DNA of 10,592 nucleotides, taken from NCBI GenBank assembly GCA_963775895.1, contig CAVZKL010000004.1, positions 1-10,592 of the forward strand, in the 5' to 3' direction. Origin of the DNA: Candidatus Bathyarchaeota archaeon. GTDB lineage: Archaea; Thermoproteota; Bathyarchaeia; Bathyarchaeales; Bathycorpusculaceae. A model generated the notes under the pieces. That model saw only the letters and a list, made by a program, of their open reading frames with translations, did not search any database and was not told the DNA's origin. The position numbers were made by a program, and so were the translations under genes. Of the stretch, positions 10 to 10,535 are shown piece by piece (the first letter of the stretch is position 1; each line of letters opens with the position of its first letter).

Positions 10-1281
10 TTAAGAATAACTCCATTTAACGCGTAGGACTTTTCTGTAGGCTATGACCGCTAGAAGTGTTACCACCATGAACAGCGCAGGGACCAAAAAT
101 AGCGGAAATTCTGATACAGCACTCTGGACACCAAAAGCATAGATCTTGTGGTCGTTTGAGCCCACGAACACCAAGCCATCGGCGACGGCGGGGGAGGACT
201 CTATTTCGTTGCCAGTTTTGTAGCTCCACACCAAGGCGCCAGTAATAGCATCGAAAGCATAGACGCTGTGGTCGTAGGAGCCGATGAAGACCTTACCGTC
301 AGCGACGGCCGGAGAAGATTCCACGTGACCTCCTGTTGTGGAGTTCCATATCAGTGCACCCGTTGAAGCATCGAAAGCGTAGACACAATTGTCAAATGAG
401 CCAATGAAGACTCTACCGTCAGCCACCCCAGGGGTAGACCACACAGAACCTCCAGTCGCATACCTCCAAACGAGAGACCCAGTGGAAGCGTTCAGAGCGT
501 ATAAGTTGTCGTCGTTTGAGCCCACGTATACCCTGCCGTCGACAACTGTTGGAGAAGACCACACGTAATAGCCGGTCGTGTAAATCCACTTGATTGCCCC
601 AGTGGAAGCGTTCAGGGCGTAGACTTTATGGTCGTTTGAGCCAATGAAAACTGTGCCGTAGGCAACGGCTGGAGAAGAGTGCACCTGATTGGCGGTCGTG
701 TAGTTCCATACGGATGTTCCCGTGGAGGCGTTCAAGGCGTACACTTTGTAGTCGTTTGAGCCTAAGAATACCAAACCTTCGGCGATGGCTGGAGAAGAGT
801 GCATCTCGTCGCCTGTAGTGTAGTTCCATATTGGAGCACCGGTCGACGCGTTCAAGGCGTAGACTCTGGTGTCCCGTGAGCTTATGTAGAGTATGCCTTC
901 AGCTATCGCTGGAGAGGGCCAAACATCATACGCTGTCGTATAGTTCCATACAAGAACGCCGGTGGACGCGTTGAAAGCGTACACCTTATGGTCATTTGAA
1001 CCGACGTAAAGTATGCCTCCGGCCATGGCAGGGGAAGACCACACCTCGTCGCCGGTTGTGTACGTCCATGCAGTTCGGTTCGTGTTTGGCGTCGTTGAAG
1101 TTGAATAACCAGCATGTGCTAGGTCATGGTGAAACATCGGCCACCAGTCTTGGTTGAGCTGTGTCTGAGAAAACCCGGTGCTACTGCGAGGATTGACTCG
1201 TGCCTGAGAAGAACTGATGAGAAGAGTCGAGGCCAGTAACAGCAAGACTGTGACGCAAATGGCAGTTCTCCCTCTCTTCAT
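10..1281 (-). CDS. Secreted, membrane-anchored PQQ-like (BamB-type) beta-propeller repeat protein with PEF-CTERM-like C-terminal sorting signal
   Basis: Signal peptide MKRGRTAICVTVLLLLASTLLISSSQA. WPMFHHDLAHAG N-terminal motif typical of PQQ-like propellers. Eight 40-aa repeats W.YTTG..V.SSPA...G.V.iGS.D..VYA.NASTG. C-terminal VSEFP + hydrophobic helix + RK. ATG at 1281 (purine-rich upstream, directly before the signal peptide) is preferred over the ORF-track start at 1320. Confidence 0.9.
   Translation of the reverse strand: MKRGRTAICVTVLLLLASTLLISSSQARVNPRSSTGFSQTQLNQDWWPMFHHDLAHAGYSTSTTPNTNRTAWTYTTGDEVWSSPAMAGGILYVGSNDHKVYAFNASTGVLVWNYTTAYDVWPSPAIAEGILYISSRDTRVYALNASTGAPIWNYTTGDEMHSSPAIAEGLVFLGSNDYKVYALNASTGTSVWNYTTANQVHSSPAVAYGTVFIGSNDHKVYALNASTGAIKWIYTTGYYVWSSPTVVDGRVYVGSNDDNLYALNASTGSLVWRYATGGSVWSTPGVADGRVFIGSFDNCVYAFDASTGALIWNSTTGGHVESSPAVADGKVFIGSYDHSVYAFDAITGALVWSYKTGNEIESSPAVADGLVFVGSNDHKIYAFGVQSAVSEFPLFLVPALFMVVTLLAVIAYRKVLRVKWSYS
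135..1070 (-). repeat. Intragenic tandem repeat, 8 x 120 bp (propeller blades)
   Basis: gtcgtttgagcc-like motif recurs at 151, 271, 391, 511, 631, 751, 871 and 991, an exact 120-nt period. Boundaries are approximate. Confidence 0.9.
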
Positions 1282-1449
1282 CTTCTGAACTCTTCCTTCT
1301 TTCCGTCGGCTGAAGAACATGCTTCAGACAATAAGCGAAACCAGACCGTGTGCACTAATAACGCTTGTGATCGCTCAAATAGGGTAAATGGACACTACTT
1401 GGCATCCTGTTGATCACAGTAACTCACAAGCGCACTTTCAGGCGCTATT

Positions 1450-1559
1450 CAGCATGCGCTCCGTGAACATCCTGCACCGGGCATATTTGGATCCTAATAT
1501 TCATGATACATCGAAACCGAGGAGGGGAGGGTACACAATAAGCCTTTTTTCAGCGAATA
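1450..1559 (+). repeat. Non-coding element, copy 1 (inverted relative to 7883-7991)
   Basis: Hand alignment of 1466-1559 with the reverse complement of 7883-7975 gives 88/94 identities, including a perfect 38-bp block aacatcctgcaccgggcatatttggatcctaatattca. Weaker similarity extends to ~1450. Confidence 0.95.
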
Positions 1560-1595
1560 GACCGCACGTTCTCGACAGCCCATGACACGTGCACC

Positions 1596-1603
1596 GTTAA
1601 ATA
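1596..1603 (+). promoter_or_regulatory. Putative archaeal TATA box for alaX
   Basis: gTTAAATA ending 33 nt upstream of the ATG at 1637. Confidence 0.5.
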
Positions 1604-1636
1604 CAACAAACCCCTTGACTCTCATCCTGATAACGA

Positions 1637-2344
1637 ATGACAAAAACCCTCTACCTAGAAGACAGCTACCAAAAAGAATGCGACAGCACCGTCCTCTCAG
1701 TCAAAGACGAAAAATACGTCGTCCTAGACCAAACCATTTTCTACCCAAAAGGCGGCGGCCAACCCCACGACACCGGAAAAATCACCAAACAAAACGAAAC
1801 CTACAACGTAGTCTACGTCGGCAAATTCCAAGGCGAAATCTCACACGAAGTCGACCACCCCGGCCTCAAACAAGGAGACAAAGTCCACTGCCAACTCGAC
1901 TGGAACCGAAGATACAAGCTGATGCGAAGCCACACCGCAGCCCACGTCTTCGCCTCCCTCCTCTGCACCGGAGTCGGCGTACTCGTAACCGGCAACCAAC
2001 TCGAAGAAGACAAAGTTCGCTTCGACTTCAGCCTAGAAAAATTCGACCGCCAAACCCTCGAACAATACATCAACAAAGCAAACGAACTGTTCAAAAAAGA
2101 CATCCCCGTAAAATGGTACGAACTCCCCAGAGACGAAGCACTAAAAATCCCCGGTCTCATAAAGATGGCCGAAGCCTTCCCCCCCAACCTACCCCGCCTC
2201 AGAGTCGTAGAAATAGTCGGCGTCGACAAGCAGGCCGACGGAGGAACACACGTCAGAAACCTGAAAGAAGTCGGACAGATAAAACTCCTCAAGACCGAAA
2301 ACAAAGGCAAAACTAACAGAAGAGTCTACTTCACCCTCTCATGA
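1637..2344 (+). CDS. alaX: Alanyl-tRNA editing protein AlaX-M (free-standing AlaRS editing domain)
   Basis: 235 aa. LYLEDSY and LDQTIFYPKGGGQPHDTG glycine-rich N-terminal motif, HTAAH (HxxxH) and DGGTH (CxxxH-equivalent) metal motifs. Confidence 0.93.
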   Translation: MTKTLYLEDSYQKECDSTVLSVKDEKYVVLDQTIFYPKGGGQPHDTGKITKQNETYNVVYVGKFQGEISHEVDHPGLKQGDKVHCQLDWNRRYKLMRSHTAAHVFASLLCTGVGVLVTGNQLEEDKVRFDFSLEKFDRQTLEQYINKANELFKKDIPVKWYELPRDEALKIPGLIKMAEAFPPNLPRLRVVEIVGVDKQADGGTHVRNLKEVGQIKLLKTENKGKTNRRVYFTLS

Positions 2345-2382
2345 ACCTCAAAGACCACGGACACACAAACATTGATTTCTAC

Positions 2383-3735
2383 TCAGATGTCGTTCTTCAA
2401 CAGTCTCGCGACAAAGAACCCGTTACACTCGTCAAGATGAGGATAGAGCCTACGACACTTCTCCAAACCCCTCAGTCCAGCCGAACCCATTCTCTGCGGT
2501 ATTTCGCCAAGCGAAAACTCCAGATGCCATTTCAAGAACCTTTCAATAACCATCTCGTTCTCCTCCACCGTCACACTGCACGTAGAATAGATCAACGAGC
2601 CTCCCGTCTTCACTCTGTCCGCGCAGTTGTTCAGCATTTGCCACTGAACCCCAGCCATTCGCTCCACAGATCTGGGACTAATCCGCCACTTGGCCGAAGG
2701 CACCTTTCCAAACGTGCCCGTACCCGTGCACGGTGGATCCAAAACCACGACGTCTGCCTCTCCTGTGAAAGGCAACGGCGCCCGCGCATCCGCAACGATC
2801 GGTTCGGCGATCTCAACACCCAGGCGAGCGATCTGACTCTTCCAAACGGTGATCCTGCGCCTCGAGTAATCCACGGAGAGGATGCTGCCGCGGTTCTGCA
2901 TCAACTGAGCCAGAAAGGTGGTCTTTGCACCAGGGGCCGCACAGACATCCAGAACAGTCATTCCAGGCTGCGGGTTTGCAGCCTCCACCATGAAGCAGCT
3001 TCCCTTGTCTTGAACATAGATCAGGCCCTCCTTGAAACACGACGTTCTCGTCACGGGTTGCCTTGAAGCCACTACCCTGTAGGTGCAACTCAACTGCTCA
3101 ACCTTCTCAAGCCTGACACCCTCTTCAACGAGTCTTTCAAGAATCTTTCCTTCCCCAGCCTTGAGCGCGTTCAGTCTGAGATAAGTTGGCGGTGGCCGCA
3201 CATCCGCTTCCAGCATGGCGATCGTCTCGTTTCTACCGAACAACTTGAAGCAGTAGCTCACAAACCACGCCGGATGAAAAGTCTCAAGCCCAACCCGCTC
3301 CTCGTCACCCAGCCCCGCGAACACCGTTTCGCGCCGCCGAGTCAGCAGCACGCCCAGGAACGGTTCAATATCGGTCAGCGTTTTCCATCCTAGAATGCTG
3401 CGTGCCATCTTGGCCGCACTCTCAGCTTCCCTGAGATTTGGCTCAGACCAGTTCCTGGCGATTCGAGTTTGATAGACGTAAAGCCGAAGGAACGCCTGCA
3501 CGCCCAAACTGTATTCGTCAATCGTTCCGGGTTTCATGACTTCATTTACGAATCTGTCTATGAAGTTCTGCCGGCGAACCGTCTCAGAAACAAGCCTGTG
3601 AGCAAACCTCAGAGAATCATAGTCTTCTATGCCCAGCTGCTTAACTGTTCTCGCGAAGGCGAGAGGCTCACTCAACCTGCGCATTTCCATCCAGCTCAGA
3701 GTTTCAATCGCAAGCGTCCAAGCTTCTTTCAGCAA
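2383..3735 (-). CDS. RsmB/NOP2/Fmu-family RNA (cytosine-C5) methyltransferase with N-terminal NusB-like helical region
   Basis: 450 aa. VQD motif, LDVCAAPGAKT (motif I), LDPPCTGTG (motif IV Cys), YSTCS (motif VI catalytic Cys), ENE and GFFVARL. TTG start. Confidence 0.92.
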   Translation of the reverse strand: MLKEAWTLAIETLSWMEMRRLSEPLAFARTVKQLGIEDYDSLRFAHRLVSETVRRQNFIDRFVNEVMKPGTIDEYSLGVQAFLRLYVYQTRIARNWSEPNLREAESAAKMARSILGWKTLTDIEPFLGVLLTRRRETVFAGLGDEERVGLETFHPAWFVSYCFKLFGRNETIAMLEADVRPPPTYLRLNALKAGEGKILERLVEEGVRLEKVEQLSCTYRVVASRQPVTRTSCFKEGLIYVQDKGSCFMVEAANPQPGMTVLDVCAAPGAKTTFLAQLMQNRGSILSVDYSRRRITVWKSQIARLGVEIAEPIVADARAPLPFTGEADVVVLDPPCTGTGTFGKVPSAKWRISPRSVERMAGVQWQMLNNCADRVKTGGSLIYSTCSVTVEENEMVIERFLKWHLEFSLGEIPQRMGSAGLRGLEKCRRLYPHLDECNGFFVARLLKNDI

Positions 3736-3855
3736 ACACGTTCACACCGATGACAGAGACAAGATCGTGAATAAAAGGAGCGCGTCAATGAAAGACGCAA
3801 TACAATTTCATTGATCGAACAAGCCGACAGCCACCAGTCAGTCTCGCGCGGTGCA

Positions 3856-3868
3856 AAAACATTTAATT
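3856..3868 (+). promoter_or_regulatory. Putative BRE/TATA for the zinc-ribbon gene
   Basis: AAAACATTTAATT ~35 nt upstream of TTG 3904, with a GAGGA-like RBS just before the start. Confidence 0.4.
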
Positions 3869-3903
3869 TCGAACCGACCATATCCACAGAAGAGGAACTG
3901 AAG

Positions 3904-4251
3904 TTGTCTGAAGTCGCGAAGATCGCACTACTGCAAGAAGTCATGAGGGAAGCAAAACGAAATGAAAGAAGCGGCCTAGTGGTATGCATCATCGGCGTCA
4001 TCGTCGCAGTCGCCGGATTCTCGACTTCTTCGCTGGCGGGCAACTCGATCAACCTTGGCGTCATCGGGGTCGCCGTTGCCGCGGTAGGATTCGTCGTTTA
4101 CCTCTACTACGCCCGCGTCTACCTCAGATTCGTGGGGCAGTTGGCGTCAATGGTCTCCAAAACCGCGTCACCGTGCCCAAAGTGCGGGAAGCCACTGCCA
4201 GAAGGCGACTTCGCTTACTGCCCGTTCTGCGGAACGCCGCTAAAGTCTTGA
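3904..4251 (+). CDS. Small two-TM membrane protein with C-terminal zinc ribbon
   Basis: Two hydrophobic segments followed by CPKC-x10-CPFCG. The TTG at 3904 (MSEVAKIALLQE...) is preferred over 3811 because TATA- and RBS-like motifs lie between the two starts. Confidence 0.75.
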   Translation: MSEVAKIALLQEVMREAKRNERSGLVVCIIGVIVAVAGFSTSSLAGNSINLGVIGVAVAAVGFVVYLYYARVYLRFVGQLASMVSKTASPCPKCGKPLPEGDFAYCPFCGTPLKS

Positions 4252-4319
4252 ACCCATCTCAAGACATCAACATCTCAACACTTCACACATCGGATCTCCA
4301 GAAAAGCAACGTGTCAAGT

Positions 4320-4877
4320 TCACTTTTTCTGTCCGAGCGGCTCTTGCCCCTCTACTCTAACGATCGGTCTCGACATAACCTCCCTTATCCGCGCAGCAAC
4401 GTTCAGCGGGTAGTGAACCCTCGTCATCACCAAGCCCTTCTCCTCTTCACTCTGCGTGCGAATGACTATGTTTCCAGAATTCAGTATCCTGTCCGAAACG
4501 GATCTTACCACTTCCAAGTCCGAAAAACCGGAAGGCGAGATCATTTCCGATTTGGAGGTCAAGATCCCGAACCTCAACTCCAAACTATCGTCCCTTAGAA
4601 CATAGGTGCTCGAAGCCCTCACCAACGCCAAGTGCAACAAACTGAACACCCAGATCAACAGGAACACCAAAGCCGTCCACGACACCAATTGCATACTTGA
4701 GAACTTCAGACTTGAAAAGCGTCTGCTAAACATGTCTGCTAAATCGTAAGCCAATTCGAACCAGGAAACAACCACGGCAACCACGAAAACCACTACAGTT
4801 CTGACCACGACGCCTGGAACTATCCACGGTTTGCCCTTCCACAACACCGAACGAGATTTTCCAGAACCCTGCGTCAA
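4320..4877 (-). CDS. Membrane protein with bacterial-type PH domain (bPH_2/YdbS-like)
   Basis: LWKGKP N-terminus, two TM segments, then Y.L....LE.R.GIL ... V.RS..DRIL.SGNI.I.T pattern characteristic of bPH_2 domains. Confidence 0.75.
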   Translation of the reverse strand: MTQGSGKSRSVLWKGKPWIVPGVVVRTVVVFVVAVVVSWFELAYDLADMFSRRFSSLKFSSMQLVSWTALVFLLIWVFSLLHLALVRASSTYVLRDDSLELRFGILTSKSEMISPSGFSDLEVVRSVSDRILNSGNIVIRTQSEEEKGLVMTRVHYPLNVAARIREVMSRPIVRVEGQEPLGQKK

Positions 4878-4912
4878 AGTCAGAGACCCAGAGCGCAGTA
4901 TATCGAGTTAAC

Positions 4913-4920
4913 TATTTAAA
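4913..4920 (-). promoter_or_regulatory. Archaeal TATA box for the PH-domain gene
   Basis: Consensus TTTAAATA on the - strand ~35 nt upstream of the start at 4877. Confidence 0.6.
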
Positions 4921-4956
4921 CCATCAGAACTCGTCCTACGTTGTACCGTGTTTTCT

Positions 4957-6432
4957 CTAGAGAATCGGAAGAGAATCTATCCTGTAGCGGTTCATGGTTT
5001 CCTTGAGCACGTTTCTTAAGTCATTTTCAACGTCAGTCGGCAAAGGTTCGGGAACGTGCTCTTTCAGCACACGGTCGACGGTTTCTCTGGCTCTGGTTAC
5101 GATGTCCTTCGATCCTTGCTTTCTCTCAGCCTCCAGAGTCAACCTGTCAATCACGTCAGAGGGCATGAAACGTTCCTTCTCCAACCACTCCCGCGTGTGT
5201 TTCTCTCCGAGATAATGACCGCCAGGACCAACCTTGCTTATCACGTCATACGCAAACGTTTCGCTGTTGACGGTTACTCCGTCAGCAAGCCTCAGGGCCA
5301 TTCCGCAGATTTCATTGTCGATGACCAGTTTTTCGAGCGATTGGCAGTTCTCAAATATGAGCATTCCTGGTCCAGAAACCACGTTTATGCCCGCTAGGAC
5401 GGCAAGTAATATTCCTGCGCTGGTTTCGATTCCGCTTTGCGCGTCAACGGCCTTAGAGTCGCTCAGCCCGAGATACGCGTGAGATGGCACGTCGTACCAT
5501 TTGGCAACTTGAGCAGCAGCACATGCCACGATCATGTTTTCGATCGATCCGAGACATGATGAAAGACGTTTCATGTCGAACGTCGTCGGGGAACCTCCGT
5601 AGATGACGGGTGCTCCAGGTCTTGTGAGCTGAGAAATGACCACGCCGCTCAGAAACTCCGCATTGGACTGCACAAGAGTTCCTGCCAGCGTTATTGGACT
5701 TGTTGCACCCATCTGTGGTGCTGGTATGATTTCAGCGGGGATTTCGTACCTTGCGCAATCGATGAGGTTCTGGCAGGCAATGTCGCTCCACACGAGCGGA
5801 GAAGACGGGCACACGTCAAAAATGGCCATCGGTCTATTCACCAACTTGTTCTCTCCGCCAGCAACGGTCTCCAGCAACTGTTTCATGTCGGTCAATCCTT
5901 TCTTCGTGAACGCGCCCGTTATGATGCCCTTTGTCGAGTTTTTCAGCACGAGATAGAGACGGTACAGGTCGCTCACTTCGTTGGGAACTTCGGAGGGCAC
6001 CATGGCTGTGCTTTGGGCGTGAATGTGCTTGAGTGCATCGACCAGTTTCACCAAGTCCACTAGGTCTTTCGAAACCGGTTGCCTCGTCTCGCCCGTTATG
6101 TGGTCAATGAAGTATGTTGCGCTGGATCCGGGGTTGAAAATAACGTTGTCTTTGCCGATTATCTGTTCGTGCTTTCCGTTTCGGTCATACAGTCTCAAAG
6201 TCGACGGTGTTTTGTCGAGACACTCCTTAACTAGGTTTTGAGGTATGTGTACGATTTTTCTGTCAGGATCAACCTCGCAACCAGCTTTCTTGAGCGAAAG
6301 TATGGCTTCATCGTTTTTTACGTTGACACCTACTTTTTCCAGGATTGTTAACGAATTGTTGTGAAGGTCTTCGATGTCGTGTGTGGAAAGCAATTGGAGC
6401 AATCGTCTTTTGGAACGGGAGAACTGGCTCAC
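4957..6432 (-). CDS. mttB: Trimethylamine methyltransferase (MttB/MtgB) superfamily protein, non-pyrrolysine
   Basis: 491 aa. IxDLHxxSLxILEKVGV start, SPL, GATSPITLAGTLVQSNAEFLSG, QLTRPGAPVIYG, SDSKAVDAQSGIE, EKLVIDNE and VGPGGHYL motifs. GTG start with a GGGATGA RBS. Confidence 0.92.
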   Translation of the reverse strand: MSQFSRSKRRLLQLLSTHDIEDLHNNSLTILEKVGVNVKNDEAILSLKKAGCEVDPDRKIVHIPQNLVKECLDKTPSTLRLYDRNGKHEQIIGKDNVIFNPGSSATYFIDHITGETRQPVSKDLVDLVKLVDALKHIHAQSTAMVPSEVPNEVSDLYRLYLVLKNSTKGIITGAFTKKGLTDMKQLLETVAGGENKLVNRPMAIFDVCPSSPLVWSDIACQNLIDCARYEIPAEIIPAPQMGATSPITLAGTLVQSNAEFLSGVVISQLTRPGAPVIYGGSPTTFDMKRLSSCLGSIENMIVACAAAQVAKWYDVPSHAYLGLSDSKAVDAQSGIETSAGILLAVLAGINVVSGPGMLIFENCQSLEKLVIDNEICGMALRLADGVTVNSETFAYDVISKVGPGGHYLGEKHTREWLEKERFMPSDVIDRLTLEAERKQGSKDIVTRARETVDRVLKEHVPEPLPTDVENDLRNVLKETMNRYRIDSLPIL

Positions 6433-6473
6433 TTGTCATCCCTTGCCTGTCTAGAGTTTATTATTCCTTGACG

Positions 6474-6483
6474 ATTAAGCTTT
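6474..6483 (-). promoter_or_regulatory. Putative BRE/TATA-like motif for mttB
   Basis: AAAGCTTAAT on the - strand ~40 nt upstream of GTG 6432. Confidence 0.35.
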
Positions 6484-6578
6484 AGCGTATTATTCACGTG
6501 GAAAGCGCGCAGACTGTTTTTCGGTAGGCAGGCTTCATAAATCTAATAAAAGACGGCCAGCAGATTTGGAGGAGAGAA

Positions 6579-6996
6579 TTGGCGATGAAGATTCTTCGTA
6601 GGCAAAGGTCTGCGTTTGCGCTCAGCTTGATGTTGTGTTTGTTAGGCGTGGCTGCGCTTTTGGTTACGCTGTGGAAGACTTGGCCTCAGGTTTCGTCGGT
6701 CAAGGATCCTTTTTCAACTTTTTTGGGGCTTCTGTGGACGGAGAAGCTGGTGAGTTTTTCCTGGCGTTGAGTTTAGCCTGATATTTCTTGTCATCTTGGG
6801 TGATGCGATGTTGGTTTTAGGGGTCGTGGTCTATGCTTTGAGCGTGCAATGGTTCTATTTGCCTGGGAAGACTGTGTGGTTTCGGTGTCCTTTCTGTAAC
6901 AAGGAGTGGAGATCGACCGGGGACAAAGCGCTGGTGCATTGTCCTCATTGTCGGCAGCTGGTTCACCCGGTCATGATAGAAAAGCCTTCTTATTAG
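6579..6996 (+). pseudogene. Membrane protein with C-terminal CxxC-CxxC zinc finger, split by an apparent +1 frameshift near 6750-6760 (pseudogene or sequencing error)
   Basis: ORF 6579-6770 has a GGAGG RBS and a TM helix. The frame of 6796-6996 stays open back to 6754 (VFPGVEFSLIFLVILGD...) and ends with CPFC...CPHC. Removing one base from the T-run at 6755-6759 gives one ~138-aa protein. Confidence 0.7.
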
Positions 6997-7103
6997 CCTG
7001 GGCAAAACAGAAGTGCGTTATCGACTTAGCAGGGTGCGTCTTGTTTTGCTTGCAACGCTGGCGGTCTGAAGGTTTAAGTTGGTTTGCCCGCATAAACTGG
7101 CGC

Positions 7104-7205
7104 ATGAGTCTTGAAATAGTGGTTCTTGGCAAGAACGGTGTTGAAGGTCTGTTAGAGGTTTACAGTTCGCCGGAGCGCGCGAGTGTGCTTGCAGGGAGGG
7201 GTTAG
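7104..7205 (+). CDS. Possible 33-aa small ORF or gene remnant (MSLEIVVLGKNGVEGLLEVYSSPERASVLAGRG)
   Basis: ATG ~25 nt after a TATA-like aggTTTAAG (~7070-7079). It ends 2 nt before the methyltransferase start. No recognisable domain. Confidence 0.3.
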   Translation: MSLEIVVLGKNGVEGLLEVYSSPERASVLAGRG

Positions 7206-7207
7206 TC

Positions 7208-7856
7208 TTGGTTGAGATGGATTCGAACTGGGATAGGTATTATTCAACGTTGAAGCGAGTGCCGAGAAGGTTGAGGGTTACTGCTCAGTTCGTTGTGGAC
7301 GCGGTGTCTGTTTTCAAGAAGCATGGGGTCAAGAAGGTTTTGGATTTGGGCTGTGGTGCGGGTAGACACTCTGTTTTGCTTGGGGGCAACGGTTTTGAGG
7401 TTATCGGCATGGACGTTTCGAGGAACGCGTTGAGGATGGCGGGACGGTGGGTTCGGAGGGAGAGACTGGAGAGCGTCGACGTTTGTGGTTGCGGCGATGA
7501 CTAACATTCCGTTGATTGATCGTTGTGTGGATGCTGTCGTCAGCGTCAGCGTTATGCATCACGCGTTGAAGAAGGATGTGGTGACGAGCGTGAAGGAGGT
7601 TTACAGGATTCTCGGCGGGAATGGGTGGTTCGTGGCGAACTTGGCTTCGGTGAACGATCCGCGGTACGGAACGGGCAGAATGTTGGAGAAGAACACTTTT
7701 TGGATTCTGGAAGGTTACGAGGAGAAACGCTTCGGGGAAGTCCATCACTTTCTCACGAAGGCTGAGGCATTCAGGTTGCTGAACGCTTTTTCCAGAAGGG
7801 ACGTTACCGTTCTGGAGGACAAGACCAATTACTGGAAAGTAGTGGCCGTCAAATAG
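7208..7856 (+). pseudogene. Class I SAM-dependent methyltransferase split by an apparent +1 frameshift near 7478-7481
   Basis: N-half has VLDLGCGAGRH (motif I) and VIGMDVS. C-half has AMTNIPL..VDAVVSVSVMHH..EVYRILGGNG. Deleting one G in gtcgacgttt joins the halves into one ~215-aa protein. GGGAGG RBS upstream. Confidence 0.82.
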
Positions 7857-7882
7857 TCGGGCGGCTCGTGTTGGAGGCTGCT

Positions 7883-7991
7883 TATTCGCTGAAAAAAAGC
7901 TTATTGTGTACCTCCCCCTCCTCGTTTCAATGTATCGTGAATATTAGGATCCAAATATGCCCGGTGCAGGATGTTTGACGAGCGCGCGCTG
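7883..7991 (-). repeat. Non-coding element, copy 2 (inverted relative to 1450-1559)
   Basis: Reverse complement reads aacatcctgcaccgggcatatttggatcctaatattcacgatacattgaaacgaggagggggaggtacacaataagctttttttcagcgaata, matching 1466-1559 with 5 mismatches and 1 indel. Confidence 0.95.
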
Positions 7992-8124
7992 TTGGGTTAT
8001 TCTGGCTGTTTATCGTGTTCGTCGTTCTTCATTTTGTTTTGACATGCATATTCTTAGCAGTTAGGATAGGCTAAGAACTTTCGGATTCGAGTTGCGGCGA
8101 AATTGCTCGGAACGAACTGAAAAC

Positions 8125-9765
8125 TCAAGCTTCCATGTTAGAAAGGAGTTTCTTTACGCCTCGCATGCAGTAAGAACGCGTGAGAATGAGAATGACTGTG
8201 CCAACGACCACCGTCAAAATAGTGGACAACAAGATTGATCCCATAGAGCCTCCGCCCAATGGCGAGGAGAATCCAGTCACTAGGTACACTGTCAACGGCG
8301 CAATAGTCGCCAAAGTCGCCAGTCCTCCTATAGTGAAGGCCATAATGAATCCTGTAAAAGTGAGGTATCTTGCTCTAGGCCCGACGGTGAAATTGGGATA
8401 ACGCGAACCTGCCCCAAGACCCACATATCCTTGTACGAATACATTGAAGATCACCGCAATCAAGGTAGCGAAGAACAGCAGCGCCGAAAGAGGAGCCAGA
8501 AACTGCAGCAGCAAAGCAATCACCAAGACTCCTACGCCTGAAATGACCCATGAAAGAAAGAGCTTCCCCTTCACAAACTCGTCAACTGATATAGGAAGCA
8601 TGTAGATGTTAGCGATCGATCTTCCCTCTTGCCCTATGGAAATGGAGGAGAGCATCATCGGCATGATAAAAGATGCTTCAGCCATTAGAACCAAACCTAC
8701 ACCTGACAATGCCTTACTTGCTCTCTCTCCACTTGTCAACGCGGGGATAAAGGAAGCCACTACGAGCATAACTGGAATGGCAAGAAACCTCGCCATATCC
8801 CTCCGTCTAGCAAGAGACCTCAACTCCTTCAAGGCTAATGCAAACGCTGTTGGATCCAGCCACCAAAAAGACTCAGCTTTGGGCGTGTAGACGGTTGAAG
8901 TGGACACCGTAATGGTGACGGGCACTGGCGACCAGTACTTGGCTCTGAGTCTGGCTGCACCCTCAAAAATCACCAACGTGAACAAAAGAGAAAGCAACGT
9001 AAACGCGGTGGTCCTCACCGCGTCGGGAACAAGGGAAGATGCGACGGCAACTGAAGGCCAGATCACAGGCACAACCCAAGCCACATTGACGCCGTAGACA
9101 ATGCTTGAGAGTGCGGTGTAAAGAATGTAAGGGTTAAAGGCTATTTGCACCGCGACGAGTAACACGACAACGAGGACAATGCGAAGGATAACACCGAGCC
9201 TTCCGCTCTTCTTGTAAAGACCAGAGGATATACGGTTCATCACCGCCCTCAAAGCCTCAACGAGCACAGCTCCCCAGATGAAGGCAAGGAGCGTTATCGC
9301 GACGAAAAAGGGAACAACCCACAGCATACCAAGGCTCATGGCGAGAGGTATAGCGACCCCGAGACTAAAACACAGAACTGGCGAGTAAGCGAACTCCAAT
9401 GAACAGCTGGAGGCTACAATGTATTCGTTCGGAGATACTGGAAGCCAGTTCACTGCTTCGCTCGTAGAGAGGCTTGTGGTCTGCCCAAGCTCAAAGAGTA
9501 TACCCGCCAAAAGCACAGCCGAAGTAAGGATAACAGGCAAAACAATGAGCGCCTGCATTTCAAGCGTTCGAACGGCGCTCGCATATTCACTTGGAATCAA
9601 GGGGAGCATATAAGAAAGCAACCCTAATGGAGTCAAGAAAACGATTGCATCTAAAATGACCAGTGCGATGGGTCTAGAAAGGAAGCTCCTGCCCCGACGG
9701 CTGCTCGCTCTGAAATATGATTTGTAGAGAACACTTGCAAGGCTAAGGATCGTTGATCGATTCAA
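8125..9765 (-). CDS. ABC-2-type exporter permease (large, ~12-14 TM, internally duplicated)
   Basis: 546 aa, highly hydrophobic. Twin motifs WLPVSPNEY and MLPISVDEFVKGK, plus LALKELRSLARR. Its TTG start overlaps the ATPase TGA stop (TTGA at 9765-9762). Confidence 0.85.
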   Translation of the reverse strand: MNRSTILSLASVLYKSYFRASSRRGRSFLSRPIALVILDAIVFLTPLGLLSYMLPLIPSEYASAVRTLEMQALIVLPVILTSAVLLAGILFELGQTTSLSTSEAVNWLPVSPNEYIVASSCSLEFAYSPVLCFSLGVAIPLAMSLGMLWVVPFFVAITLLAFIWGAVLVEALRAVMNRISSGLYKKSGRLGVILRIVLVVVLLVAVQIAFNPYILYTALSSIVYGVNVAWVVPVIWPSVAVASSLVPDAVRTTAFTLLSLLFTLVIFEGAARLRAKYWSPVPVTITVSTSTVYTPKAESFWWLDPTAFALALKELRSLARRRDMARFLAIPVMLVVASFIPALTSGERASKALSGVGLVLMAEASFIMPMMLSSISIGQEGRSIANIYMLPISVDEFVKGKLFLSWVISGVGVLVIALLLQFLAPLSALLFFATLIAVIFNVFVQGYVGLGAGSRYPNFTVGPRARYLTFTGFIMAFTIGGLATLATIAPLTVYLVTGFSSPLGGGSMGSILLSTILTVVVGTVILILTRSYCMRGVKKLLSNMEA

Positions 9766-10535
9766 AGACGTAAGGCCTCTACGATCTTTTCAGCGTCTTC
9801 GCTACCGGTGAGCTTCAGGAATATATCCTCCAACGTCGAGCCAGGCATGCCTGCTTTTGCCCTCAGTTCTTGCATTGTCCCCTCAGCTATGATGCTCCCT
9901 TCATTCAATATCGTAATCTTGCTGCACACGGCCTCAGCGATTTCCAAGACATGGGTACTAAAGATGATTGTGACGCCTTCCCCGGCAAGGCGCTGAAGGA
10001 TATCCTTGACGATCCTAGCCGATCGGGGGTCCAGACCGTTCAATGGTTCGTCCAAGATCAAGGCTTTGGGTCGATGAAGCAGAGCCGCTGTGAACGCTAT
10101 CTTCTGCCGCATGCCTTGAGAGAAACCAGCCATGACTTCATTGATTTGTTCATTCATCTGCAAAGCCTGAAGAAGCTCATCAACCCTCTCCCGCCTGCTC
10201 TTCAGGTCGATGTGATATGCCGTGCCCACGAAGTCAAGGTATTCCGAAGCCGTCAGGTATTCGTAGAGATAGGGAAATTCTGGAACATAGCCCACGAGCT
10301 TCTTGGCCTCGACGGGTTGCCGCAGCACGTCTATGCCGCAGAGGCTTATTTTACCGTAGTCGGGCCTGACTATGCCCATCACCATCTTCATGGTTGTGCT
10401 CTTCCCTGATCCGTTTGGACCGAGAAGACCATGTATTTCCCCTGGTGCCACGGACAATGTCAGGTCTCTTACTGCCACCTTATCGCCAAAAGATTTCTTC
10501 ACAGATTCGAGCGTTATTCCTTCCATTGGCGTCAC
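9762..10535 (-). CDS. ABC transporter ATP-binding protein (CcmA/DrrA-like exporter ATPase)
   Basis: Walker A GPNGSGKS, signature FSQGM, Walker B LILDEP, H-loop STH and C-terminal LEDIFL. Start may be GTG 10535 or ATG 10526. Confidence 0.95.
   Translation of the reverse strand: MTPMEGITLESVKKSFGDKVAVRDLTLSVAPGEIHGLLGPNGSGKSTTMKMVMGIVRPDYGKISLCGIDVLRQPVEAKKLVGYVPEFPYLYEYLTASEYLDFVGTAYHIDLKSRRERVDELLQALQMNEQINEVMAGFSQGMRQKIAFTAALLHRPKALILDEPLNGLDPRSARIVKDILQRLAGEGVTIIFSTHVLEIAEAVCSKITILNEGSIIAEGTMQELRAKAGMPGSTLEDIFLKLTGSEDAEKIVEALRL

Follow-up and report, generated by a model that had tools for sequence, protein, structure and literature searches.

Results

Two facing copies of a short repeat enclose the genes of the window

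The window, a 10,592-nt stretch of a Candidatus Bathyarchaeota contig, carries two inverted repeats that are both copies of a 79-nt element present 36 times in the 1.77-Mb assembly (Table 1). The inverted-repeat arms were confirmed at 1450-1559 and 7883-7991, the similarity between copies A and B spanning 1450-1565 on the copy A side, and the copies point at each other as a convergent pair whose anchors are separated by 6,363 nt. In copy A a near-palindrome (ATATTTGGATCCTAATAT) is accompanied by an AT stretch resembling a TATA box, by a G-run (GAGGAGGGGAGGG) and by a T-run; in the alignment of all 36 copies the order is a TATA-like box, ~25 nt, the G-run and then T6-7, seven copies having an A-run where the others have the T-run. 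The element retains G and T within its own footprint (see below), its promoter-like core is conserved ahead of varied sequences in 9/10 genus genomes, and no Rfam match at E ≤ 1 was found anywhere in the window. No trans-acting protein for the element was identified.

Between the repeats lie genes on both strands. The 16-nt stretch GCACCGTTAAATACAA surrounding the TTAAATA box is shared with the alaX upstream region of a relative (G006) where no element is present; the box is therefore probably alaX's own promoter, and the repeat was rejected for that role. Both halves of the SAM-dependent methyltransferase match consecutive positions of the Methyltransf_11/25 profile (1-48 and 48-97), so they are a single gene interrupted by a frameshift (at about 7477-7504; a base is missing at 7477 in contigs of three other runs). 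Matches of the two small ORFs were weak and below cut-offs (63 aa, no family; 66 aa, zinc-ribbon-like). As the initial annotation had claimed, alaX and the methyltransferase are both on the + strand, and their identities hold.

Table 1. Repeats, genes and compositional footprints in the window.
Feature	Position	Strand	Basis or remark
Copy A, conserved repeat	1481..1559	+	nhmmer, all-copies profile, positions 1-79, E = 4e-25
TTAAATA box within 16-nt stretch	1597..1603	+	Upstream sequence comparison
alaX-type editing protein	1637..2344	+	Pfam tRNA_SAD, tRNA-synt_2c; co-oriented with copy A
RsmB/F (Nop2/Sun) RNA methyltransferase	2383..3735	-	Pfam; anti-oriented to copy A
Small zinc-ribbon protein	3811..4251	+	Pfam Zn_Ribbon_1, 26.1 bits
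bPH_2-domain protein	4320..4877	-	Pfam bPH_2, 22.2 bits, right at cut-off
MttB-family methyltransferase	4957..6432	-	Pfam MTTB, E = 1e-101
Two small G/T-rich ORFs	6579..6996	+	Anti-oriented to copy B
SAM-dependent methyltransferase	7208..7856	+	Methyltransf_11/25; anti-oriented to copy B
Copy B, same repeat, facing copy A	7883..7960	-	nhmmer E = 1.5e-22
Footprint of copy A, + strand C/A-rich	1300..4900	+	G+T 0.34 by the element, rising to ~0.45-0.49
Footprint of copy B, - strand C/A-rich	5700..8100	-	+ strand G+T 0.56-0.65

A polar compositional footprint is anchored on the element

Counted per 600-nt window, + strand G+T was 0.34 at 1501-2400 and 0.635-0.647 at 6301-7800 (genome-wide mean 0.502, sd 0.051; 17,561 windows), and the hand counts by which the bias had initially been noticed (12/60 at 1741-1800, 29/60 at 5521-5580 and 43/60 at 7321-7380) proved exact. 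The footprint of copy B peaks adjoining copy B, and cumulative GC skew has its minimum at ~5250-5550, inside the MttB gene, where both footprints meet. The upstream start of the copy A footprint, at ~230 nt, was taken from the genome-wide profile. In that profile, the oriented mean of 36 copies, element-strand G+T was flat upstream, ~0.38-0.39 in the first kb downstream and back at 0.49 by ~4-4.5 kb; the downstream value (20..2020) was 0.410 vs 0.499 upstream (Wilcoxon p = 6e-7, n = 34), and 18/34 copies fell below 0.40 downstream vs 2.3% of 5,000 random oriented 2-kb windows. The skew seen in the window thus recurs at other genomic copies, 31 of 33 being lower downstream than upstream, with about 10/35 weakly skewed and lacking a contiguous domain. 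Copies with the A-run were as skewed as those with the T-run (0.416 vs 0.406). The onset is sharp and precedes the element by ~230 nt as a short tail of the same sign: the DNA downstream is C/A-rich in the element's own orientation, as the initial annotation stated, but the skew does not start at the 3' edge and fades over ~4 kb rather than 2-3 kb.

Across the genome the copies form 10 convergent pairs, spaced 4.2-25.8 kb, and three tandem pairs, with no divergent pair within 30 kb among all genomic copies (P < 5e-5 in two permutation tests). Such inward-facing pairs resemble Ter sites, which in a fork trap stand in opposed groups. The element, in the predicted orientation, also marks 10 of the 19 sharpest domain starts (~0.3 expected by our own estimate). 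Some equally strong skew patches do lack it, namely the other nine sharp starts and a 20-kb domain on contig C15. These would suit a passenger, i.e. a mobile short repeat that would prefer to insert, with one set orientation, at the margin of DNA already skewed by, for example, integrated elements or old domains: two of the sharp element-free domains set out from tRNA-integrated elements that carry tyrosine recombinases, strong skew is found in patches of relatives too (1.5-3.5% of the 600-nt windows sampled, vs 2.0% in the present genome, G000), and the copies are 90-97% alike despite flanking synonymous sites near saturation. We nevertheless consider this the least probable of the readings weighed here, as alaX and RsmB are housekeeping genes with unskewed orthologues elsewhere, in 31/33 copies it is the element that anchors the gradient, and so exact an insertion preference would in turn call for a mechanism that ties insertion to the process. 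Moreover, no terminal inverted repeats or target duplications were visible by eye in the 36-copy alignment, and a transposase search found none, Y1 included (the sole TnpB-like hit was sub-threshold). As opposed to MITEs and REP/BIME sequences, which the element resembles as a 79-nt, intergenic, palindrome-bearing unit in 36 copies that breaks short-read assemblies, it thus lacks such ends and a detectable transposase, and across the genus its core persists as a conserved, promoter-like module; a literature search found no flanking compositional footprint described for MITEs or REP/BIME.

The footprint ignores gene direction and expression

At four-fold sites the element strand read A.31, C.42, G.16, T.105 in 32 co-oriented genes and, after complementing, A.32, C.38, G.17, T.12 in 31 anti-oriented genes, that is, one shared composition (A.31, C.40, G.17, T.11) vs.25/.27/.24/.24 in 1,194 background genes. 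T is the rarest base, and C/T are more displaced than A/G. The strand bias is therefore indifferent to gene direction, as had been proposed, and the footprint is mutational, not selective. Within the window, alaX codons indeed end mostly in C/A (third positions A.36, C.57, G.06, T.02). Expression level was rejected as the cause, since third-position G+T in EF-1alpha, thermosome and ribosomal-protein genes (0.31-0.53) is far less skewed than in alaX (0.08) or BacA (0.14).

These data also bear on the idea that the element is a strong promoter whose read-through transcription causes the asymmetry. The core is promoter-like, the effect is polar and declines with distance, and background genes lean slightly the same way (sense third-position G+T 0.45), but that lean is almost gone at four-fold sites (0.48) and the archetypal highly expressed genes lack comparable skew. 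In addition, a T-run is part of the element and copies lacking it show the same behaviour, the skew is already present upstream, in relatives the same core is without a footprint, and the sign is opposite to the non-template G+T excess reported in PMC10030826. GC-skewed R-loop zones of CpG-island promoters, as described there, likewise show kb-scale asymmetry from a promoter-like element, but here the strand leading away is C/A-rich, the opposite sign, anti-oriented genes are equally affected and expected expression is not tracked. A promoter effect is very improbable.

The footprint is lineage-specific and dominated by two transitions

Orthologues in sister species lack the codon bias: third-position G+T of alaX was 0.33-0.50 there, and that of the RsmB sense strand was 0.63 here vs 0.36-0.39 in four orthologues. 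Judged by this sequence comparison, the footprint at both genes is lineage-specific. Among 220 RsmB differences at positions where the other orthologues agree, 114 were A>G and 34 C>T on the sense strand, which is element-antisense, vs 8 and 14 for the reverse changes; 10 G>A and 10 T>C made up 20 of 38 changes in alaX. On the element strand T>C is the prevailing change, followed by G>A.

Of mismatch-repair nucleases, NucS/EndoMS alone was detected in the genus (MutS_V, 0/11 genomes). It is represented by PF01939 in 9/11 genus genomes, with no match in G000 or G006; a relative's NucS protein as query also gave no match in G000 at E ≤ 1, an absence that is not proven since G000 is 88.8% complete. 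Sister species with NucS carry the core without a footprint (10 copies in G001, 10 in G005, 12 in G004). The correspondence is imperfect: G006 has no NucS match, yet its three core copies leave no footprint, and G009 has NucS with a mild footprint (0.41-0.44 over five copies). In delta-nucS Streptomyces lines, as reported in PMC11109965, 97% of substitutions are transitions, and in leading-strand sequence A>G exceeds T>C by ~3:1 and C>T exceeds G>A. By that calibration the element strand would be lagging-like, and the spectrum fits uncorrected G-T mispairs. Those lines and MMR-deficient E. coli (same source) resemble the present case in being transition-dominated, ~3:1 between strands and prominent in A:T>G:C, the former also in that NucS was not found in G000, but synthesis would here run toward the element, not away from it.

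Discussion

The initial annotation had proposed that a polar, strand-asymmetric process leaves a kb-scale footprint beside the repeat; the 36-copy mean, the four-fold sites and the orthologues support this core idea, although element-free patches exist as well. The polar mutational footprint is well supported, and a polar mutational process that acts on the DNA and is linked to the element is likely; that the element causes the footprint, and how, we infer from the patterns above. The 79-nt repeat may anchor, in an orientation-specific way, a transaction that recurs on the DNA itself and that would be neither transcription of resident genes nor ordinary bulk replication. On the element strand, from ~230 nt 5' to 1-6 kb 3', T>C and G>A would exceed their reverses, and sites left free by selection would drift towards C/A.

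One candidate transaction is a strand-specific nick or one-ended break near the element, after which the element strand would be resected 5'>3' over 1-5 kb and, for a short distance, 3'>5' on the upstream side; A and C of the exposed complementary strand would deaminate to hypoxanthine and uracil, and fill-in would fix T>C and G>A on the element strand. This would explain the one-sided shape, with its ~230-nt same-sign tail upstream and long tail downstream, on the kb scale typical of long-range resection. As no set fork direction is needed, skew at both members of a pair, and in both orientations on one contig, is accommodated, and the tyrosine recombinases of the tRNA-integrated elements at which some skewed domains begin are DNA-nicking enzymes. 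Spontaneous deamination, however, favours C, while the exposed strand has 114 A>G vs 34 C>T and C/T are the more displaced at four-fold sites; EndoV and UDG genes are present; and no nickase was found in the transposase search (no Y1, TnpB-like hit sub-threshold). Restriction at the palindrome is unlikely, GGATCC being not avoided (1.16 of expectation); by our rough arithmetic the single-stranded state would be needed in most generations, and error-prone fill-in of the resected strand would yield the opposite sign. On balance we consider resection unlikely. In its favour, its two transitions are those of the mitochondrial deamination gradient: in mtDNA, G>A and T>C form a cis-element-delimited gradient on one strand that shapes free-site composition (PMC8565317).

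Four-fold sites here reach values like those of the vertebrate OH/OL gradient, but the pattern belongs to a cellular chromosome, recurs there 36 times and extends over 1-6 kb, and T, not G, is the rarest base. Relative to the anchor, the sign matches OL and the decay OH, so neither origin type fits, and we know of no strand-displacement replication in archaeal chromosomes. A second candidate is a unidirectional origin-like start at which a short G-rich RNA, running from the promoter to the T-run, would prime synthesis into the 3' side, akin to mitochondrial LSP/CSB II, the displaced or late-copied strand accumulating changes. The TATA-like box, the G-run ~25 nt on and T6-7 are in keeping with it, as are a predicted RNA hairpin between G-run and U-run (-12.2 kcal/mol, z = -2.7) and a gradient that fades away from the element as from OH; in human N-domain work, fixed initiation with random termination is reported to give sharp jumps and gradual decay like those found here. 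But the hairpin is not conserved in the seven A-run copies, which are equally skewed, the onset lies ~230 nt upstream of the putative start, and the oriC-like region beside orc1/cdc6 has a different dyad, TTCCAGAGGAAA...GGGG. Moreover, the sign is opposite to all available calibrations: the mitochondrial H strand read away from its origin is G/T-rich. The same holds for the strand read 5'>3' away from a bacterial origin (PMC10030826) and from the origin in delta-nucS lines (PMC11109965). An origin-like start is accordingly quite unlikely.

We tentatively favour a third candidate, arrest and resynthesis, as possible rather than probable. DNA synthesis from the 3' side would run toward the element, be arrested there and be redone, the element acting as a polar barrier, e.g. 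through tight binding at the palindrome or through a short RNA gene met head-on. The element-antisense strand would thereby be made repeatedly as a continuous nascent strand, and in a lineage apparently without NucS/EndoMS, G-T mispairs would stay uncorrected and print the asymmetry. The way synthesis runs and the part played by NucS loss are both inferred. Polar fork barriers (Tus-Ter, head-on tRNA genes, RTS1) act in an orientation-specific manner, and forks arrested at them undergo resection and a low-fidelity restart that extends over kilobases. The Tus-Ter trap has opposed groups facing each other, like the 10 convergent pairs, but here both pair members are marked, and pairs enclose 4-26 kb and are spread over the genome; we know of no compositional footprint at Ter sites.

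Several findings speak against arrest: (i) both members of the 6-kb pair are skewed, and forks from a single origin would reach only one from its 3' side; (ii) the copy at 113,497 on contig C18, where the presumed oriC lies at ~25 kb, is co-directional with oriC forks, yet its footprint is among the strongest (0.32); (iii) the sign calibration is bacterial, and the replicase differs. To keep the model, one would have to invoke more than one origin, recombination-dependent replication or inversion of the DNA lying between the repeats. Replichore skew switches once at the origin and spans megabases, as opposed to the local, repeat-anchored pattern here, whose size over all sites (~0.12) is several times that of contig-level skews (0.02-0.04); fork direction is hence insufficient, and extra rounds of synthesis must be assumed. 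Whichever transaction is responsible, the footprint looks like the scar of a directional DNA process in an uncultured archaeon.

Results

A dispersed repeat anchors strand-asymmetric composition

The three hand counts of + strand G+T from which the initial annotation had started (12/60, 29/60 and 43/60) proved exact on recount. In 600-nt windows, the G+T fraction of the + strand is ~0.34 at 1501-2400 and ~0.64 at 6301-7800, compared to a genome-wide mean of 0.502 (sd 0.051), and the GC and AT skews shift together across the window, from -0.27 and +0.39 at 1501-2400 to +0.48 and -0.21 at 7201-7500. The strands of the mapped genes (see the table) imply that the skewed DNA spans genes in both directions. 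Pfam families matched 8/10 ORFs of the window, the two others being shadow ORFs, and no tRNA was found in it.

Features mapped in the window
Feature	Position	Strand	Support
PQQ beta-propeller protein	10-1320	-	Pfam
Inverted repeats	1450-1559 and 7883-7991
alaX	1637-2344	+	Pfam
RsmB/F methyltransferase	2383-3735	-	Pfam
Zinc-ribbon protein	3811-4251	+	Pfam
bPH_2 protein	4320-4877	-	Pfam
MttB-family methyltransferase	4957-6432	-	Pfam
Two small ORFs	6579-6996	+
SAM methyltransferase, frameshift-split	7208-7856	+	Pfam
Membrane protein without family	8125-9765	-
ABC ATPase	9762-10535	-	Pfam

In the genome under study (G000; 1.77 Mb, 28 contigs, 88.8% complete), to which the window belongs as contig C4, BLAST and a profile search with nhmmer agree exactly on 36 copies of the 79-nt unit, 90-97% alike, on 19 contigs, and the profile added no diverged copies. 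Along the unit lie, in order, a near-perfect palindrome of 18 bp around GGATCC (a hexamer that is not depleted in G000), an AT stretch that is a possible TATA box, a conserved GAAACCGAGGAGGGG block ~25 nt beyond it and an AAGC-T6/7-CAGCGAATAA tail, which is replaced by GGCTG-A6-CAGC in 7-8 copies. Every copy is intergenic, the next gene being co-oriented in 19 and anti-oriented in 16; at two copies an ORF crosses the whole repeat, starting at a TTG within the palindrome.

Averaged over the 36 oriented copies, G+T on the element's strand is 0.38-0.39 in the first kb downstream and reaches 0.49 by ~4.5 kb, while the upstream side is flat (0.48-0.51). Per copy, the mean is 0.410 downstream versus 0.499 upstream (Wilcoxon p = 6e-7, n=34), values below 0.40 occurring downstream of 18/34 copies versus 2.3% of random windows, and a contiguous skew domain of 1.3-5.8 kb adjoins 25/35 copies (≤0.3 kb in the other 10). 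An exponential described the decay poorly and needed a negative baseline, so this fit was discarded. The fade takes ~4 kb in the mean, and not the 2-3 kb proposed from the window. The fine-scale profile places the onset of the skew ~230 nt upstream of the conserved unit, where median G+T falls from 0.49 (-1000..-700) through 0.45 (-400..-230) to 0.37 (-230..-62).

Neighbouring copies tend to face inward. Adjacent copies on a contig form 10 convergent (4.2-25.8 kb), 3 divergent (all 49-113 kb) and 4 tandem pairs; within 30 kb there are 10 convergent, no divergent and 3 tandem pairs, and ten convergent pairs were reached in 0/20,000 orientation shuffles and 0/20,000 random placements (P < 5e-5). 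The two copies of the window are therefore a typical arrangement, in which the footprints point into the enclosed segment. Inversion between paired repeats might spread a one-sided footprint to both ends of a pair; this idea, and the skew of paired versus unpaired copies, were assessed by eye only.

The skew is mutational and follows the strand, not the gene

Gene calls came from a crude home-made ORF scorer (1,592 genes, 75% coding), and in other skewed domains Pfam matched 10/10 ORFs of one set and 8/10 of a second above the cut-off. Within 1.5 kb of an element, third-position G+T on the sense strand is 0.247 in 25 co-oriented and 0.653 in 23 anti-oriented genes (background, 0.450), a mirror bias that leads us to reject codon usage adapted to expression. 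When four-fold sites are read on the element's strand, both classes have the same composition (A.31-.32, C.38-.42, G.16-.17, T.105-.12), compared to a nearly even one in background genes, and first and second codon positions near elements are shifted as well. The bias is thus independent of gene direction, as had been suggested from alaX and the SAM methyltransferase, and the common composition is that of a mutational equilibrium of the strand rather than a codon preference. Four-fold sites had no neighbour preference beyond the background pattern and hence no deaminase-like motif. Variants within the element, counted by site-type, did not give a clean spectrum (T>C 8, G>A 8 versus A>G 9, C>T 3).

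Expression as the cause was rejected on a second ground, namely that third-position G+T in EF-1alpha (0.31), two thermosome genes (0.35 and 0.39) and ribosomal-protein genes (0.31-0.53) is far from that in alaX (0.08) and BacA (0.14). Read-through transcription from the element is likewise a less likely source of the footprint, because the skew does not follow expression, its onset lies upstream of the element, and the element carries a T-run of its own, while copies with the A-run instead are equally skewed (0.416 versus 0.406). Horizontal transfer of the segments was rejected since the genes are housekeeping genes with orthologues, and an assembly or sequencing artefact because contigs of other runs match at 95-99% (e.g. 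7 differences in 670 nt over alaX).

Runs sharing the window's words are labelled as wetland, peat and freshwater-sediment metagenomes, and contigs from four DNA runs represent related strains, with 739 differences to the window and breaks at the repeats. Among the indel differences listed, 11/12 fall between the two repeats (7 further indels). Contigs of three other runs are one base shorter at 7477, within the SAM methyltransferase frameshift at 7470-7505, a change that would join its frames; the split reflects either a pseudogene specific to the strain or an error of this assembly in a homopolymer. Contigs of other runs skip and step back many times across 119-1069, where the PQQ gene contains seven copies of a unit repeated every 120 nt (68-78% alike); these units are propeller blades at the DNA level.

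In a repeat-associated domain at G000:C23:60000-65100 (locus L030), three genes of sugar pathways appear disrupted: those for a GT2 glycosyltransferase and for RmlD are each divided between two ORFs that overlap, and a GDP-mannose dehydratase-like ORF has 246 aa, which is short for a 332-position profile. Dockerin-repeat proteins, probably secreted, are over-represented near the repeats, with 10 ORFs within 3 kb of nine copies (G000 C2:14082-14846, C22:53820-54191, C14:36688-38643 and seven more). This family of 10 is the largest cluster among the neighbouring proteins, which include no conserved enzyme.

Relatives carry the core of the repeat, largely without the footprint

Orthologues of alaX in five other genomes of the genus have third-position G+T of 0.33-0.50 versus 0.08 in G000, and no element was found beside them in the flanking sequence examined. 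For RsmB, which lies on the opposite strand to alaX, the sense-strand value is 0.63 in G000 versus 0.36-0.39 in four orthologues; the same codon bias in orthologues, which by the initial annotation would have refuted its reading, was thus not seen. At 220 RsmB sites the four orthologues agree and G000 differs, with 114 A>G and 34 C>T changes on the sense strand (T>C and G>A on the element's strand) and 8 and 14 of the reverse types, a polarity that rests on composition because the comparison, of G000 with a tight cluster of four, is unrooted. In alaX, 10 G>A and 10 T>C are found among 38 G000-specific changes.

The first ~46 nt of the repeat (the core) are conserved in 9/10 other genomes of the genus, where the sequences behind them vary and tRNA genes often adjoin them tail to tail. 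Core copies in G001 (10; G+T 0.48-0.52), G005 (10; 0.47-0.52) and G004 (12; 0.46-0.50) have no footprint, and those in G009 (5) show a mild shift (0.41-0.44). In several sister species (loci L008, L010, L033, L038 and others) the G-run end of the core adjoins the 3' end of the tRNA, and at loci of other relatives a conserved 60-nt sequence, of which there are two or three kinds and which may be a small RNA, comes after the core. The titles of public records with the core name Candidatus Bathyarchaeia or Bathyarchaeota MAGs, except in two otherwise labelled; the core pattern had no match in viral contigs, nor the repeat in phage records.

The mismatch endonuclease NucS/EndoMS (PF01939) was found in 9/11 genomes of the genus, two of them only 63-65% complete. 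It was not found in G006 or in the 88.8%-complete G000, where a relative's NucS protein also had no match at E ≤ 1; at this completeness, the absence is compatible with loss of the gene from G000 and is not proof of it. Synteny with G001 demonstrated no deletion of nucS: the pyrophosphatase beside NucS there shares only 46% identity with the corresponding G000 protein, whose surroundings are different. MutS was found in 0/11 genomes of the genus; EndoV and UDG are present in G000.

Other anchors of skew domains

A correctly oriented element lies within 700 nt of 10/19 of the sharpest domain starts, where a rough estimate gives ~0.3 by chance. An element is placed exactly as predicted at 18 of the 76 strongly skewed patches of G000 and lies near several others. 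Two starts without an element, at C18:104.7 kb and C23:15.7 kb, coincide with tRNA-integrated elements that have tyrosine recombinases, and G005 holds a similar case. Tyrosine-recombinase genes abut or overlap a tRNA at C18:103696-104727, C23:15600-16774, C23:21452-21922 and 8750-9715 of the G005 locus L047, an arrangement resembling SSV-type integration; with third-position G+T of 0.15-0.17, the sense strand of these genes is extremely rich in C and A, and skew domains begin exactly at these sites in the absence of the repeat. The regions upstream of these domains share tRNA-derived similarity only. A second dispersed repeat, of 43 nt in 4-5 copies (C11:2290-2332, C11:6224-6267 and C23:23260-23302 among them), is found close to patches of skew and to the integrase region on C23 and may be an attachment-site remnant.

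At C2:12700-13100 (~13.1 kb), 1.2 kb upstream of a repeat copy, composition switches divergently, G/T-rich leftward and C/A-rich rightward, with nothing recognisable at the switch point; of the genes on its two sides, one is NrdD-like (third-position G+T 0.11) and the other unknown (0.18). At C15:23000-44500 (locus L025), a 20-kb stretch with several internal peaks has a G/T-rich + strand (0.56-0.67) across housekeeping genes on both strands (HMG-CoA reductase, PRPP synthase, CCA-adding enzyme, BacA, LigT), third-position G+T being 0.74 in the CCA-adding enzyme and 0.14 in BacA; it stops abruptly at ~44.5 kb, where neither repeat nor tRNA was found. When the element-less starts were searched for motifs, neither the palindrome nor the G-run box turned up again. 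Extreme windows make up 1.5-3.5% of sampled DNA of relatives versus 2.0% in G000.

Repeat-anchored strand skew is thus confirmed, G+T being lower downstream than upstream in 31/33 copies. Given the element-less sharp domains and the similar share of extreme windows in relatives, however, the repeat is the commonest anchor of skew domains in G000 and not the sole one, so that the anchoring originally proposed stands in part. Targeted insertion of the element into DNA that was already skewed is a less likely explanation of the association.

Comparison with known kinds of element

Archaeal origins comprise several ORB boxes (a dyad with a G-string) around an AT-rich unwinding stretch, usually beside orc1/cdc6, and the ORB consensus served as the reference here. 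The sole orc1/cdc6 gene detected in G000 (C18:25749-27020; sole Cdc6_C match at C18:26649-26930) is directly preceded, at C18:25000-25750, by TTCCAGAGGAAA...GGGG-type boxes and an AT-rich stretch that make this the probable oriC; one repeat copy lies 2 kb past the gene, facing it. The repeat differs by eye in its dyad (TTTGGATCC.AAA), in being a single unit and in having no AT-rich stretch. Moreover, according to PMC10030826, the + strand switches from C/A-rich to G/T-rich across an origin, whereas crossing the element gives the opposite step, from neutral to C/A-rich on its strand. With both architecture and skew step contrary, the repeat was rejected as an Orc1/Cdc6-type origin.

A MITE is recognised by its terminal inverted repeats, its target-site duplication and the presence of a cognate transposase gene. 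Neither of the former was visible by eye in the 36-copy alignment, and the 88.8%-complete G000 yielded 0 matches to Y1_Tnp, 0 to RVT_1 and one sub-threshold match to the TnpB zinc-ribbon, which argues against a MITE or other transposon derivative. A small RNA gene or promoter module would produce a transcript from downstream of the TATA-like box to the T-run; none of the 21 sequencing runs listed as carrying the stretch is RNA. Rfam (E ≤ 1) had no match to the repeat or elsewhere in the window. The G-run is predicted to fold with the U-run (z = -2.7), a fold missing from the A-run copies, and DNA folds of both strands of both window copies were no better than shuffles.

Like Ter-type polar fork barriers, the repeats form opposed groups, convergent in ten pairs within 30 kb and divergent in none. 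Forks of a single direction do not, however, predict the marking of both pair members seen here, and on C18 marked copies occur to either side of the presumed oriC, one of them co-directional with its forks; these observations argue against a barrier to forks of fixed direction. Among known phenomena, the G>A / T>C gradient of mitochondria comes closest (PMC8565317). A strand-displacement gradient of this type has these transitions on one strand, in proportion to the time spent single-stranded between two origins. The transition types agree with those found here. The sign of the footprint and the direction of its gradient jointly fit neither OH nor OL, and no second-strand origin was identified. 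Our literature search returned no description of a repeat-anchored, kb-scale, paired skew footprint in a prokaryotic chromosome, archaea included.

Discussion

Taken together, these results make it likely that a polar process acting on DNA is tied to the element. The initial annotation had seen in the element the start or stop of such a strand-asymmetric process; the polar footprint agrees with this, but a simple origin at the element has the wrong sign. In the account of PMC10030826, the strand running 5'>3' away from an origin (leading) or a promoter (non-template) is G/T-rich, whereas the strand read away from the element is C/A-rich, so that a simple origin or promoter is a poor fit and an origin-like primer unit at the element a less likely explanation.

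The changes are transitions, and on one strand T>C outnumbers G>A, a spectrum that suggests uncorrected G-T mispairs. Such mispairs have this effect in NucS-deficient bacteria, where the leading-strand sequence gains A>G over T>C at ~3:1, and C>T over G>A (PMC11109965). If this calibration applies, the element's strand would be lagging-like and the continuous nascent strand would run toward the element. The mechanism we tentatively favour, while holding it to be no better than possible, is that DNA synthesis is arrested at the element again and again and then redone, and that the resulting errors would persist because NucS is missing; it would require forks from both sides, or inversion between paired repeats. 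Under this arrest-and-resynthesis reading, the presence of NucS in relatives that carry the core would explain their absent footprint. Its main rival is 5'>3' resection initiated at a nick, followed by deamination of the exposed strand, which accounts for the one-sided shape and for the independence from fork direction, yet not for A>G outnumbering C>T.

A bolder reading, which we regard as unlikely, is that the repeat is the cis site of an undescribed archaeal chromosomal DNA transaction, in which dozens of inward-facing sites bracketing 4-26 kb would launch or stop synthesis or strand processing in one direction every few generations. Such sites would be dispersed replication units or fork traps, visible only through the loss of a mismatch-repair nuclease.

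Strand-asymmetric composition is the main readout of DNA replication, repair and transcription that sequence alone affords, and in this ordinary archaeal chromosome the individual copies of a 79-nt repeat are predictive of a footprint of mitochondrial strength, with a sign that differs from that of an origin or promoter at the repeat. As the footprint shows, codon usage can differ drastically between neighbouring genes of one genome for purely mutational causes, which can mislead gene finders, detectors of horizontal transfer and composition-based binning. Bathyarchaeia are a major uncultured group of sediments, and we know of no experimental study of their replication and repair. If the repeat is causal, a cis element directing a polar DNA process in Bathyarchaeia would have been identified, G000 would offer a natural experiment on the loss of NucS/EndoMS, and the local polarity of DNA synthesis would be readable from metagenomes.
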